Source of the DNA: Escherichia coli
GTDB taxonomy: Bacteria; Pseudomonadota; Gammaproteobacteria; Enterobacterales; Enterobacteriaceae
Assembly: GCF_965641715.1 (NCBI RefSeq)
Contig: NZ_OZ282453.1
Length of the DNA stretch: 64,000 bases
Direction: 5' to 3' (one strand)
Positions 4,290 through 43,559 of the stretch are shown piece after piece. Position 1 is the stretch's first letter. Each line of letters begins with the position of its first letter. A program made the position numbers and the translations under genes. The notes under the pieces are model-generated. The model had not been told where the DNA came from and did not search any database. It saw only the letters and a list, made by a program, of their open reading frames with translations.

Positions 4290-4500
4290 AGGGGAGAGTC
4301 GGGGAAGACTACGAAAGCCCGCTCTCCTGCGACCACTTTTATCATAGGAGTGTGGAAGTGCTTTACCATCAATCGCGATGACGTCTTTGTCATTTGATGA
4401 ATGGCAGTCACGCATCCAGTTAATAAAGCACTCGTGAAATTATACTGAACGGATACAAGACATAACTCTAATTATGGTGTCGTGAACAGGATTACCATTT
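4290..4500 (-). mobile_element. Fragment of an ISAs1-family (H-repeat-associated) transposase gene, N-terminal portion only
   Basis: Minus-strand translation gives [40 protein letters not shown], matching the N-terminal region of H-repeat/ISAs1 transposases; truncated at both ends; ~80% identical at DNA level to 6250..6430. Confidence 0.6.
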
Positions 4501-4539
4501 TCAAAATTACAATATTATTTGCAGTAATTATGTTATTAA

Positions 4540-5052
4540 TCATTGTGATATTTCCATCTCTGTGATTAATACCGGATAAGCATTTAATTGCAGAGTTTGC
4601 ACGAAATTATCGCAGATAACTGGCAATAACAATAACCCATCAGCCCGCTGCTGTAATACCTCCATTCGTTCTACTGATTCAACATTAACAACCAAACCAA
4701 GGGCATTTAGCGATTTAAGGATCTCCAGATGTTCACTCATCCAGCGCAGAGAAAAAGGATCATCACCAATTATAAAAACAGGCCCCCAGCCGGTTAATAA
4801 CTGGCGTTTCATTACGGAACCAGGATGAAGTCGAGTACATATTACAGGAAATACCCCCTGTTGCGATGGTTCCGATGATGTGGATAATTCAGAAATATTT
4901 TCCATTGTTAGTGAAGAATTAACATGCATTAATAATGGTGAAACAACCTCACTTTCCTTGCTAGTAATGGCTGCACTAATCTGAAAGGAAAATAACAATA
5001 TTATTACGTATAAACTCATTTTTAACATAACACATTCAATCCGTTTATTCAT
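4540..5052 (-). CDS. Hypothetical protein with N-terminal hydrophobic signal/anchor (170 aa), AT-rich
   Basis: ORF with hydrophobic N-terminus (MSLYVIILLFSFQISAAITS); low GC relative to flanks; sits between two H-repeat fragments. Function unknown. Confidence 0.4.
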   Translation of the reverse strand: MNKRIECVMLKMSLYVIILLFSFQISAAITSKESEVVSPLLMHVNSSLTMENISELSTSSEPSQQGVFPVICTRLHPGSVMKRQLLTGWGPVFIIGDDPFSLRWMSEHLEILKSLNALGLVVNVESVERMEVLQQRADGLLLLPVICDNFVQTLQLNAYPVLITEMEISQ

Positions 5053-5118
5053 GTTATAGAATAATGATGCTATAAATCATCATTAATGTTCAATTATTTA
5101 ATCACACAATTTAAAAAA

Positions 5119-5622
5119 TCATTGACCAATGTGAATTGGCAATGTACCACTCAAGTTAAAATCACTGAATATTTTATCAATTTCTCTTGCAGTTTCTATA
5201 TATTTAACCTCTTTCGTACTTGCATTATAAATAGCCCAAGCCTCGGGATGGGATGTTCCACCAAACCTTACAAAAAAACTTGATTTCATATTATTATATA
5301 AATTAACATCAGGAAAAGGATCTTCTCCAAAATTAGTAGTATTGAATAATGAAAGTTCGTATCGCTTAGAAAATTCTGTTGGTAGGATAGCTTCACTGCC
5401 ATCAATAGCATTCATCCAGAGTTTGTTACCATTATATTCCAACAATAATCTCTGTTTTGCATGTGTCTTATCTCGTTCTTTAACGACAGCGAATACCTTT
5501 TTAACAACTTGCTGTGCGGATGGTCCTATTGTATTACCAAAAGCTGGCAACCCGATTTTGCCATAAACACTCTCCTGAATGAAATAAATATCCGTTTTAT
5601 CGGCCTCGACAATATCTACCAT
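5119..5622 (-). CDS. Hypothetical protein (167 aa), AT-rich, no recognisable motif
   Basis: Intact ORF between H-repeat fragments; the position suggests an orphan toxin/immunity-type cargo ORF, but nothing in the sequence confirms this. Confidence 0.4.
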   Translation of the reverse strand: MVDIVEADKTDIYFIQESVYGKIGLPAFGNTIGPSAQQVVKKVFAVVKERDKTHAKQRLLLEYNGNKLWMNAIDGSEAILPTEFSKRYELSLFNTTNFGEDPFPDVNLYNNMKSSFFVRFGGTSHPEAWAIYNASTKEVKYIETAREIDKIFSDFNLSGTLPIHIGQ

Positions 5623-5850
5623 TTATCCCTCCAAACAAGACCTGACTCCAGGACAAGAGCATAGTGTGTAGTAAACACTTCATGCTCTTGCCCTGACCAT
5701 TGAAATAACAACTTTCGTTTGTTTACTGTACGCTGTCTAAATAGCTGCGTGGAATAAAGTTGCACTTTTTATCATCCCTTGCAGAACAAGATTACGAAAG
5801 CCCGCCCCCGCAAGGACTGACGCGAGGTAGTCTCTGTCCGCAGCTGCTTT

Positions 5851-6620
5851 TCACATCTTACATCTTGCCCCTGCCTTGATTATCTTATCTTTCGTTAAAA
5901 TATTAATAGCGATCTTCCGTATCCCTGAAAATAATTCTGCTGCATTTCCTCTTCTTATTTTGAAGTCGTCTTTATTCATTACCACGTCCAGATGCCAGTG
6001 CAATTTATTCTCCACTTGCCAGTGATTTCGGTTCGCTGTGGCGAACTTCTCTGCGGTTAAATCAGCAGAAATGCTATAATATCTGACCGTCATTTCGGGA
6101 TTTTTCTTTTGTTCTGCTATTATTGAGCGAAATGAGACTGCCATGCATAATTTCTTCAGCCCTTTCCATTCAAACGTAAAATCAATAAATTCATCAGAGA
6201 CATGCAAACAATATGAAGACGGGTTTTAATGACATAAATTGCTCCCTTGTGACGACTTTTATCATAAGAGTGCCGGAGCGTTTTTCCATCAATTGTAATG
6301 ACGTCTTTATCATCTGAAGAATGACAGTCACGCATCCAGTTAATAAAGCACTCATGAAATTTTTCAGGACTGATACAGGATACAACTCTGGCAATGATAT
6401 CGTGAACAGGAATACCATTTTCAAAATCACCATATCACTTCAAAAAATCGGGATGTGTTTCCCCAAATCCTCTATATCTTCCCAGCATTATGCACCAGAA
6501 ATAACGGCGCAAATAGTTAACAGATAGAATATCTGGCAATTTATGTTCCACTTTCCAGGCTTGCCTGTAATCGGGGATAATAGAAATATGTTCCATCAAT
6601 TTTTTAAGTTCCATTTTGCC
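5851..6620 (-). mobile_element. Degenerate ISAs1-family (H-repeat) element: transposase gene with internal deletion and frame disruption
   Basis: Minus strand encodes [18 protein letters not shown] ... [25 protein letters not shown] (N-terminal part, ~6620..6250) joined to the C-terminal part [12 protein letters not shown] ... [37 protein letters not shown] (ORF 5851..6207); the middle of the transposase is missing. Confidence 0.7.
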
Positions 6621-6759
6621 CCCCTTAATTATGCAATGAGTATTTGATCATGTATAAGCAATGAAAAACAGCTTTAGGTAATAAGGAACACCTCAATTAT
6701 TGAACATAAAATGCGAATTATTTAGTACAAAAAAAGCAGCATTACGTGATTTTTCCCTG

Positions 6760-41316: not shown

Positions 41317-41546
41317 CAGGCCGAACGGTTACTGAATCAGGAAACTCCACTGGAGTACATGCTGACGCAGTACCAGGAGACCCGCACGCAGAATCAGGAC
41401 ACACAGGCGCTAGCAAAAGAGATCAACCAACGGCTGGATGGGCTGTTAAGCCGCTGGCTGTTGCTGAAAAATACCGGACAGGATATGGCAACGGACAACA
41501 GCACCGTGCCAGTCCCGCCGACCCATTGAGTTTAAGGAGAATAACA

Positions 41547-42026
41547 ATGGCAAATCCCGTCTATCTGACACTGAACGGAGAACTTCAGGGGCTGATTTCA
41601 TCCGGATGCTCGTCAATGCCGTCCATCGGTAACAAAGCCCAGATTGCACATCAGGATCAGATCATGGTGACGTCACTGTCCCATGGTCTGAGCCGGGCGC
41701 AGAATGTCAACCACCAGGAGCTGACCATCACGAAACCGGTGGACAAATCTTCCCCCCTGCTGGGCAAGGCCATTTCGGAGAATGAATGTCTGACCTGTGA
41801 TTTTGTATTCTATCGCACCAACCGCTTTGGTGTTAATGAACCGTACTACAAGGTGAAACTGACTAACGCCCGGATCTCAAACATCGGCCTTACCGTTCCC
41901 CATACCATTAACGACAGCCCAGGACAGCCGGAAGAGTCTGTGTCATTTACCTATGAGAGTATCAACTGGGAGCACAGCGTCGCCGGAACCAGTGCGTACA
42001 GCCTTTGGAGTGAACGGATTTTCTAA
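41547..42026 (+). CDS. hcp: Hcp tube protein, second paralogue (159 aa)
   Basis: ORF 41160..42026; start placed at ATG 41547 (MANPVYLTLNGELQG) with an aaggag RBS; Hcp family. Confidence 0.85.
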   Translation: MANPVYLTLNGELQGLISSGCSSMPSIGNKAQIAHQDQIMVTSLSHGLSRAQNVNHQELTITKPVDKSSPLLGKAISENECLTCDFVFYRTNRFGVNEPYYKVKLTNARISNIGLTVPHTINDSPGQPEESVSFTYESINWEHSVAGTSAYSLWSERIF

Positions 42027-42103
42027 GTTACCTGGGAGTTTTTCATCTGCATTATTGTTATATTTTAAAAAGGCAATTTAACATTATAAAATAAAATGAT
42101 AAA

Positions 42104-42145
42104 GTACGGTTAATCACGAATAAAAATTCTTAATTAACCGTACCT
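42104..42145 (+). terminator. Inverted repeat / candidate terminator downstream of the last core T6SS gene
   Basis: gtacggttaat ... attaaccgtac, an 11 bp perfect stem with an 18 nt loop, in the AT-rich intergenic region. Confidence 0.3.
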
Positions 42146-42366
42146 GCTGTTTTATAGATGTGTATGATGTATTTTTGACAGTTCAACCGAAAACTCGAAC
42201 TACAGCTTATATGTTGAGAGAACAATAAATAACTTTAGTAAAGTTTTTTACTACTTCTAAAAAATATATATGTAAAATTAATTAGCAGACTTGAACCAGA
42301 GTATAAATAGAAAAGAAAATGCTCTTTCTTGCTAAGTACCATTAAAACGTCTGGTATAAAACCTTA

Positions 42367-43152
42367 CTACTGATAGCGATTCACCAGATCTTTAACCACT
42401 GCTGCGTACGTTTTCTGCTTAAGTTGTGAAATCTGCTGTTCTGCCACATCAAGGCTGTCAGAATTTTTATTCCCTATCTGCGGAAAAATCACTTTCGATT
42501 CATAATTCACAGGCGACCAGGTAGCCCACTCACCTGTAGCCACATCCACCAGCGTGAATCGAACCAAATAACGCAGTGACATCGTGTCAGTCAATTTTTG
42601 ATTTTTATAATCTGACCAAACTATTGATTTCAATCCAGAGTCATATTTTCCTGTCTGCAACGTATCCTGGAAAACAATAATCGCTTTCTGATGGCCTTTT
42701 GCCGCAACAAAACGTAATGCCTGCATCCAGTTCATATTTTCGGCTTCTACAACATCCAGACTTTCATCTTTGTTTTTGTCTTTATTACAAGTTACAGGTT
42801 TTTGCCTGTCAGGAATGCCAGAAAATGTGGCAACTGTATAATATTTTCTCATCTCCTCCTGCATAATGGTTTCCGGTGCGCGACTGCCAGACTGAACAAG
42901 TATAACGGGAGAATTAAGAGGCACACGAAACTCATCTCCTTCAAGCGCAGCTTGAATATCCTCCTCGGATACAACCAGTGTGGTTTCATTACCATATAAA
43001 TCTTTGTCTGTTAGTTGCTGGGGAACGTTTTTATTAATAGAACTTTGTGCGGTTTGAGTTTTTTTCTTTTTTTCATCAATAGGAGATTCAGAGGCACATC
43101 CTGCAAGCAGCGAGAATAATACACATATACAACAAACCCTTCTTAAATTCAT
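42367..43152 (-). CDS. yafT: Lipoprotein YafT (261 aa)
   Basis: Lipobox signal peptide (VLFSLLAGC); 261 aa; adjacent to tRNA-Asp as for yafT. Confidence 0.75.
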
Positions 43153-43482
43153 AATCGGACACTCCCTCGCCTGTCATAATCATGGTAATGTTTAGCTAAC
43201 GATTTTTAATTATATACTCCACTTGAATCAGAACAAACAAAAATAACAGCAAATATAAATTCATTAAATCAATAGAAAAATGAAAATCATAACATGCAAA
43301 TATATTTAAATTGAATGATTCGATAGTATGATTAAATATTAATGATATGGTCTACCATATGTGATTAACACATTTACAGCATAACAAAATCATAGACCGA
43401 AGAAATAGCGGGATTTAAATGCAAAAAACCGCAAAATTAAAAATCTTGCGGTTCTCTGAACCTCATTTTCATGAGGTGAATT

Positions 43483-43559
43483 TGGCGGAACGGACGGGAC
43501 TCGAACCCGCGACCCCCTGCGTGACAGGCAGGTATTCTAACCGACTGAACTACCGCTCC
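43483..43559 (-). tRNA. aspV: tRNA-Asp (GUC)
   Basis: Reverse complement matches the E. coli tRNA-Asp sequence as I recall it (GGAGCGGTAGTTCAGTCGGTTAGAATACCTGCCTGTCACGCAGGGGGTCGCGGGTTCGAGTCCCGTCCGTTCCGCCA). Confidence 0.95.

Follow-up and report, generated by a model that had tools for sequence, protein, structure and literature searches.

Identity of the locus

The window analysed here, a stretch of 64,000 nucleotides of the Escherichia coli chromosome (contig NZ_OZ282453.1, assembly GCF_965641715.1) that runs in the orientation opposite to K-12, carries between yafV and the tRNA-Asp gene aspV an island encoding a type VI secretion system (T6SS). We read it, with a probability of about 0.85, as the E. 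coli T6SS-2 locus (subclass i1, Vibrio vas-like) of the aspV-yafV hotspot, comprising the genes of a predicted contractile injection machine and of its cargo. The gene order with tagH, vasI and vasL, the closeness in sequence to enteroaggregative E. coli (EAEC) 042 and to Vibrio cholerae, and the aspV-yafV site are all those of T6SS-2/i1, the assignment to subclass i1 being founded on gene order, identity to 042 and the best PDB matches. The locus is already described, and what is particular to this strain is the combination of cargo modules together with two private single-base lesions; the current understanding of T6SSs is unchanged by it. The finding serves as context: it establishes which system (T6SS-2/i1) would deliver the cargo proteins of the window, where its locus begins and ends, and how intact the machine is. 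Claims about these proteins should allow for an intact core as well as for private lesions in vasL and in one putative immunity gene.

Positions 15383-43660 of the window align to the aspV locus of EAEC 042 as one 28.3-kb block at 95.6% identity, which answers the call of the initial annotation for a whole-locus comparison with published aspV-associated clusters. The same annotation had called this a known E. coli island type, and rightly so, since such loci are described at aspV both in 042 (PMC2808357) and in EDL933, where the aspV-associated T6SS spans 37 kb (PMC5363993). In 042 it is the third T6SS (Ec042-0210-0226), which also occurs in many extraintestinal pathogenic (ExPEC) and avian pathogenic (APEC) E. 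coli strains and is more than 95% identical in UMN026, 536, UTI89, APEC O1, S88, ED1a and 55989 (PMC2808357). The current nomenclature is E. coli T6SS2, subclass T6SS-i1 (PMC12282107, PMC6730261). At least 80% of window 21000-44500 is held by 548 of the 5,426 complete E. coli genomes, or about 10%.

The locus of the window and that of 042 occupy the same aspV site and have in common the order yafT, hcp-2, vasL, tssM to tssB, hcp-1, vgrG, DUF4123 gene, 523-aa gene and 336-aa gene; both encode an FHA protein without the kinase and phosphatase, as published for 042 (PMC2808357). They differ in that 042 lacks window 6760-15382, containing most of the PAAR gene, vgrG-b and the M35-like and Tle1 modules, and has copies of ISAs1/ISEc1 and a group II intron in its place. 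Its vgrG is annotated as partial or a pseudogene whereas ours is intact; the reverse is true of vasL, which is complete in 042 at 452 aa and truncated in the window. A second relative, strain A30 (NZ_CP028745), is 99% identical over window 1-15123 and 21000-44500.

The core machine

The plus-strand operon extends from tssB at 22438 to the second hcp gene (41547-42026) in the order tssB-C-E-F-G-tagH-J-K-L-H-vasI-A-M-vasL-hcp (Table 1). All 13 core genes, tssA to tssM, score above the curated cut-offs of their NCBIfam models and cover these essentially from end to end, and tagH, vasI, the TagA/VasL-class gene, two hcp genes, two full vgrG genes and one PAAR gene are likewise full-length NCBIfam matches above cut-off. 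No core component (13 of 13 present) and no spike protein is missing or interrupted. The 13 core genes and the PAAR spike that define a canonical class i system are both found, and the earlier description of a complete T6SS with a core operon running from tssB to hcp on the plus strand holds: every gene of 22438-42026 exceeds its NCBIfam cut-off, and TssA-M, Hcp, VgrG and PAAR are all full-length, with the qualification that the accessory gene vasL is truncated. By eye, a hairpin (gtacggttaat...attaaccgtac) with a T-rich stretch is visible after hcp-2 at 42100-42140, which is likely the terminator of the core operon; a simple scan did not report it.

Comparison with the vas cluster and regulation

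The order of genes in common with V. cholerae is vipA, vipB, tssE, tssF, tssG, the VCA0112 position, tssJ, tssK, tssL, clpV, [vasH], vasI, tssA, tssM and vasL, where vasH stands in brackets because it belongs to the V. cholerae cluster only. We take VCA0112 to be an FHA protein. Set against the V. cholerae vas cluster (VCA0107-VCA0123, with the numbering of VCA0107-VCA0121 as tabulated in PMC3166118), the order in the window equals VCA0107-VCA0121 minus VCA0117 (vasH, the sigma-54 activator), and VCA0122 is missing as well. After vasL comes hcp in the window and vgrG-3 in V. cholerae, and the hcp and vgrG/effector modules, attached to the cluster here, lie in separate auxiliary clusters in V. 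cholerae. At the level of protein sequence, TssC is 70% identical to the V. cholerae sheath structure 5mxn_A, gap-free over 472 residues (780 bits); the related PDB entry 3j9g is labelled VipB, and these two entries outrank the other TssC structures as matches.

The end of tssH at 34425 overlaps the start of vasI at 34422 exactly where vasH would sit, and there is therefore no vasH; no gene for a sigma-54 enhancer-binding protein, the mark of VasH-type regulation, separates clpV from vasI. The largest stretch of the island without a gene call is the divergent promoter region, and 703 bp are too few to accommodate a gene for a sigma-54 activator, for a Ser/Thr kinase or phosphatase, or for an integrase. 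Regulation of the PpkA/PppA/Fha type does not fit either, in that TagH is present and the tiling of genes leaves no space for the kinase and phosphatase. A search for the sigma-54 -24/-12 element (TGGCAC-N5-TTGCW, at most 2 mismatches) found none in 21735-22437, where only sigma-70-like hexamers occur, and sigma-54-like matches overall were fewer than in shuffled sequence. The vas-like order without a sigma-54 activator that the initial annotation had proposed is thus upheld by the order itself, by the tssH/vasI overlap and by the missing -24/-12 site. With VasH missing, the AT-rich region between the two operons presumably supplies promoters of the sigma-70 type for their transcription.

Cargo modules

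The minus-strand operon opens with hcp-1 followed by vgrG-a, and three tandem cargo modules are found downstream. The divergent hcp-vgrG cargo operon described earlier is therefore real and more elaborate than had been claimed, with the correction that the third vgrG and the second PAAR gene are remnants.

The candidate effector of module 1, a protein of 523 aa, has no Pfam domain, no name and no solved homologue; its family is restricted to the Enterobacterales, and its predicted fold is rich in beta-sheet. The 336-aa protein encoded next to it, for which no Pfam match was found, is from its gene position probably the immunity partner of the 523-aa protein. Module 2 combines the intact PAAR gene with vgrG-b, a gene for an M35-like metallopeptidase and a further putative immunity gene. 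In module 3, the effector has a DUF2235-type domain (PF09994), a GxSxG motif in the form GFSRG and the Tle1 C-terminal domain PF22137, and is a predicted phospholipase of the Tle1 family; the neighbouring DUF3304 lipoprotein is probably, judging from its position, the Tle1 immunity protein. The PAAR remnant of this module is 79% identical to the intact PAAR gene and is joined to a vgrG fragment, from which it follows that the Tle1 module no longer has functional spike genes of its own.

A similar arrangement is known from the vgrG-tle1-tli1 genes of EAEC Sci-1 (T6SS-1, i2), where a Tle1 phospholipase likewise stands beside a lipoprotein gene and vgrG and where the C-terminal extension of VgrG is the dock of the effector (PMC6730261). 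Sci-1 is, however, of another T6SS subclass and lies at another locus (the pheU island), and in the window tle1 comes after a DUF4123 adaptor gene and a vgrG remnant, with the DUF3304 lipoprotein gene upstream of tle1.

Table 1. Features of the T6SS island and its flanks, in window coordinates
Feature	Position	Strand	Match or remark
fadE	385-2829		left flank, then ivy, yafV
yafV (2-oxoglutaramate amidase)	3499-4269	+	conserved left flank; 98% identity to K-12 up to 4327; annotated yafV in A30 and 042
ISAs1 (H-repeat) internal fragment	4321-4520	-	81% identity to 6241-6440; ISAs1 pseudogene in A30
DUF2859 protein ("integrating conjugative element protein"), signal-peptide-like N-terminus	4540-5052	-	PF11072, 99 bits; also in 042 and A30
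Hypothetical 167-aa protein, partner of DUF2859 gene	5119-5622	-	no Pfam match; conserved in A30 and 042
ISAs1 family transposase pseudogene (H-repeat)	5793-6614	-	DDE_Tnp_1 fragment; frameshift and internal stop annotated in A30
Diverged duplicate of yafV 3' end	6759-6822	+	80% identity to 4211-4274; K-12 yafV sequence also matches
Tle1-family phospholipase, predicted effector (697 aa), module 3	6872-8965	-	PF22137, 200 bits; PF09994, 86 bits; GFSRG motif
DUF3304 lipoprotein, module 3	8950-9504	-	PF11745, 99 bits; lipobox VSGC in translation
DUF4123 adaptor (chaperone), module 3	9818-10588	-	PF13503, 55 bits
PAAR remnant (10927-11002) fused to vgrG C-terminal fragment (10595-10939), module 3	10595-11051	-	repeats; vgrG pseudogene annotation in A30 and JX21CE8
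Gene after M35-like effector, probable immunity, module 2	11083-11922	-	5' end frameshifted, T9 vs T8
M35/aspzincin-like metallopeptidase, putative effector, HEMSH motif, module 2	11925-12728	-	PF14521 below cut-off; PGAP "peptidase M35" in A30
vgrG-b (799 aa), acidic linker and C-terminal extension, module 2	12715-15114	-	TIGR03361, 600 bits, full length; Pfam domains
PAAR spike-tip protein, module 2	15133-15417	-	NF033420, 157 bits, model 1-94 of 94
336-aa protein, signal-peptide-like N-terminus, module 1	15528-16538	-	next to 523-aa gene also in 042 and E7-1N7
523-aa candidate effector, module 1	16605-18176	-	
DUF4123 adaptor, module 1	18198-19040	-	PF13503, 91 bits
vgrG-a (652 aa), module 1	19037-20995	-	TIGR03361, 598 bits
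hcp-1 (172 aa), first gene of cargo operon	21216-21734	-	TIGR03344, 209 bits
AT-rich divergent promoter region	21735-22437		32.9% GC; sigma-70-like sites only
tssB, sheath small subunit	22438-22941	+	TIGR03358, 172 bits
tssC, sheath large subunit	22964-24448	+	TIGR03355, 673 bits; 70% identity to PDB 5mxn_A
tssE	24453-24878	+	TIGR03357, 134 bits
tssF	24884-26725	+	TIGR03359, 548 bits
tssG	26689-27738	+	TIGR03347, 350 bits
tagH, FHA-domain accessory protein	27755-29035	+	TIGR03354, 420 bits; Pfam FHA and T6SS_FHA_C
tssJ, outer-membrane lipoprotein	29032-29556	+	TIGR03352, 142 bits
tssK	29559-30905	+	TIGR03353, 419 bits
tssL, DotU family, without peptidoglycan-binding extension	30910-31683	+	TIGR03349, 215 bits
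tssH/clpV	31693-34425	+	TIGR03345, 1115 bits; intact here, pseudogene in A30
vasI, overlaps tssH end	34422-35165	+	TIGR03360, 259 bits; PF11319
tssA (VasJ-type)	35170-36612	+	TIGR03362, 453 bits
tssM	36692-40159	+	TIGR03348, 947 bits
vasL, TagA class B (ImpA_N, hydrophobic segment, VasL domain)	40168-41528	+	cut at codon 383
hcp-2 (159 aa), last gene of core operon	41547-42026	+	TIGR03344, 205 bits; 29% identity to hcp-1
yafT-like lipoprotein, diverged allele	42367-43152	-	82-88% nucleotide identity to K-12 yafT
tRNA-Asp (GTC) aspV	43483-43559	-	K-12 identity breaks at aspV 3' end

Proposed working of the system and evidence against it

By established T6SS biology, TssJLM would form the envelope-spanning complex, with TssEFGK and a VgrG trimer capped by PAAR as baseplate and spike, and TssA would prime Hcp to polymerise into a tube within the TssBC sheath. 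Contraction of the sheath would then eject Hcp, VgrG and PAAR with the attached effectors into a neighbouring cell, ClpV would recycle the contracted sheath, and TagH, VasI and the TagA-class VasL would act as accessory proteins. Three sets of cargo are predicted: VgrG-a with a DUF4123 adaptor, the 523-aa effector and the secreted 336-aa putative immunity protein (module 1); PAAR and VgrG-b, the C-terminal extension of which probably binds directly to the M35-like metallopeptidase, with a putative immunity gene downstream (module 2); and a decayed PAAR-VgrG with a DUF4123 adaptor, the DUF3304 lipoprotein as putative immunity protein and the Tle1 phospholipase (module 3). The T6SS-2 locus of this strain is probably functional.

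Several observations weigh against this reading. The first is the premature stop in vasL, where in the alignment with A30 codon 383 has changed from TGG to TAG (41314-41316), which leaves 382 aa here versus 452 aa in A30 and costs the VasL domain its final third (positions 1-92 of the 147 of Pfam VasL remain, and ImpA_N is present). TAG occurs in none of the 206 complete genomes carrying the surrounding 61-mer, each of which has a single mismatch to the window, and the 61-mer with TAG has no identical copy in the 5,426 complete genomes; the amber codon is either private to this strain or a sequencing error. The second is the frameshift in the putative immunity gene of the M35-like module, where a run of T at about 11876-11884 has nine residues here versus eight in the alignment with A30. 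The additional T puts the first 15 codons of the gene, encoding a hydrophobic leader, out of frame, and stops appear in the translation. The shorter run, with one T fewer, is found in 12 of the 12 complete genomes with this M35-module sequence, and the frameshift may be a real lesion or a homopolymer sequencing error; if real, it would leave the putative immunity protein without its export signal. In addition, no intact cognate VgrG is encoded in the Tle1 module. The metallopeptidase scores 19.8 bits against PF14521, below the gathering cut-off of 30 (E 0.0011), so that we call it M35-like and do not consider membership in M35 to be established. The roles given to the 523-aa, 336-aa, M35-like and DUF3304 proteins come from gene position only, and for the 042 copy of the system PMC2808357 noted no evidence of expression.

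Taken together with other signs of erosion, such observations may be read as those of a silent or decaying relic, in which the machine is intact on paper but unused and the cargo is eroding. Both private lesions would agree with this, as would the PAAR-vgrG remnant and ISAs1 pseudogenes at the left end, the want of evidence that the 042 copy is expressed (PMC2808357), the tssH pseudogene of A30 and vgrG pseudogene of 042, and a promoter region whose 33% GC is typical of DNA silenced by H-NS, a link to H-NS being our inference. We nevertheless consider a relic unlikely. All 13 of the 13 essential genes are full-length, and both private lesions are single-base changes that may be sequencing errors, the homopolymer one especially. 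Moreover, VCA0121, the V. cholerae orthologue of VasL, is not required for Hcp secretion or for the killing of amoebae and bacteria (PMC3166118), and proteins of the TagA class have no part in building the sheath but keep it stable when extended, modulating sheath stability only (PMC6745524); because of these two findings, we infer that the vasL truncation would cost at most efficiency.

Granted a probably functional T6SS-2, its targets could be mainly eukaryotic host cells, with roles in virulence, intramacrophage survival and adhesion as proposed for T6SS-2. An association of T6SS2 with pathogenesis has been put forward and is relayed in a review (PMC6730261), and the aspV T6SS of EDL933 promotes intramacrophage survival and has a catalase, KatN, among its secreted proteins (PMC5363993). 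The gene tiling of our island, however, includes no katN-like gene, its effector genes are paired with genes for secreted or lipoprotein partners (the 336-aa and DUF3304 proteins), which is the signature of antibacterial effectors and their immunity proteins, and Tle1 phospholipases are antibacterial in EAEC (PMC6730261), so that a mainly eukaryotic target seems improbable.

Exchange of modules among strains

Over their first 1475 bp (21004-19530 versus 15123-13649) the genes vgrG-a and vgrG-b are 97.4% identical, and then they diverge, this 5' repeat constituting a 5.9-kb direct repeat. The near-identical 1.5 kb would be a substrate for recombination through which modules may be swapped in or out, or exchanged with orphan vgrG islands, and strains would differ in cargo because it allows such recombination. 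Strain A30 shares with the window the M35 and Tle1 modules and, at the left end, the ISAs1/DUF2859 segment, but lacks exactly 15124-21004 (module 1), so that vgrG-b directly follows hcp-1; this resembles the product of a recombination between the two vgrG genes without the intervening module. In A30, tssH has an internal stop (A30 locus 25810-28542) and is intact here, whereas vasL and the gene after the M35-like effector are intact in A30 and lesioned here. With lesions scattered among relatives (tssH of A30, vgrG of 042), decay of this T6SS appears to be common.

In E7-1N7, the PAAR-vgrG-DUF4123-523aa-336aa unit forms an orphan island near yncG, and the junction of the 336-aa gene, PAAR and vgrG is found at about 91% identity in orphan vgrG islands of 149 genomes, CFT073 and Nissle 1917 among them, so that there is precedent for such tandem arrays. 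The combination of three modules at this locus occurs in none of the 5,426 complete E. coli genomes, and no complete genome covers window 1-24000 in full, the best covering 82% (JX21CE8). All of the cargo modules are known from further E. coli genomes, and they are shuffled by an ordinary mechanism, namely recombination via the conserved stretches of vgrG and PAAR together with ISAs1 scars.

A more speculative suggestion, which we regard as doubtful, is that the array of three modules is close to the full ancestral cargo of the aspV T6SS-2. The 042 type would then have arisen by deletion of 6760-15382 beside ISAs1, the A30 type by vgrG-vgrG recombination removing 15124-21004, and the K-12 type by loss beyond the shared yafV-ISAs1 junction, and the 523-aa family might be a new kind of membrane-inserting toxin.

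Boundaries, flanks and left end

Homology to K-12 MG1655 on the left (98%) stops at window position 4327. On the right, identity is 97-100% as far as the 3' end of aspV (43483), beyond which it falls abruptly to 75-88% over the spacer and yafT and is gone at 42364. The strain-variable segment is 4328-43482 (about 39.2 kb), in agreement with the interval of 4290-43559 between yafV and aspV in which the T6SS had been placed, and the part without any counterpart in K-12 is 4328-42363 (38.0 kb). K-12 has yafT, ykfM and the pseudogenes yafU and yafF in this interval, the last being an ISAs1 (H-repeat) end that matches window 5793-6070 at 89.6%; the earlier description of the K-12 interval as a few small genes and an H-repeat remnant is correct. 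By tblastn, ykfM and yafU have no match in the window. The notion that ykfM (480 bp, the length of hcp-2) or yafU might be leftovers of hcp or vasL was rejected, neither tblastn nor blastn finding any similarity. The break in haplotype falls exactly at the tRNA 3' end, with the yafT and spacer segment (42367-43482) at 75-88% and dnaQ and rnhA, on the right flank beyond aspV, at 97-100% to K-12. The yafT-like lipoprotein (42367-43152) has no family match in NCBIfam or Pfam profile searches.

A classical integrase-mobilised tRNA pathogenicity island inserted into aspV would also lie directly 3' of the tRNA with K-12 identity breaking at that very point, and the locus does combine a variable segment starting from the tRNA 3' end with atypical and heterogeneous GC content (core 56.1%, the two vgrG genes 57-58%, effector and immunity genes 32-46%, promoter region 33%, flanks 48-54%) and has been labelled a composite pathogenicity island (PMC5363993), but we hold this origin to be very improbable: there is no integrase among the open reading frames of 4270-43482, all of them assigned and separated by no gap above 703 bp, the 25-nt aspV 3' sequence (at most 3 mismatches) occurs only in aspV and aspU with no second copy or att-type repeat in the island, K-12 and this strain each have a yafT allele, which here separates the tRNA from the T6SS genes, and homologous recombination together with ISAs1 scars explains the variation among strains. 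The word island is accordingly not to be read here as an integrase-type tRNA island.

At the left end, two copies of the yafV 3' end (4211-4274 and 6759-6822) bracket 2.5 kb containing ISAs1 remnants, the DUF2859 gene and a hypothetical gene. The yafV flank meets the ISAs1 end at a junction common to the window and K-12 yafF, with the K-12 homology overlapping the ISAs1 end. This shared junction suggests that ISAs1 may have inserted before the split, in which case K-12 would once have had the T6SS segment and have lost or replaced it.

Scanned in full against Rfam, the window has no match inside the island and, elsewhere, only rRNA, tRNA and StyR-44. A second tRNA-Asp gene (aspU) and a complete rrn operon (5S, 23S, tRNA-Ala, tRNA-Ile, 16S) lie at 51706-56937, the StyR-44 match falling in the 23S leader region of this operon.

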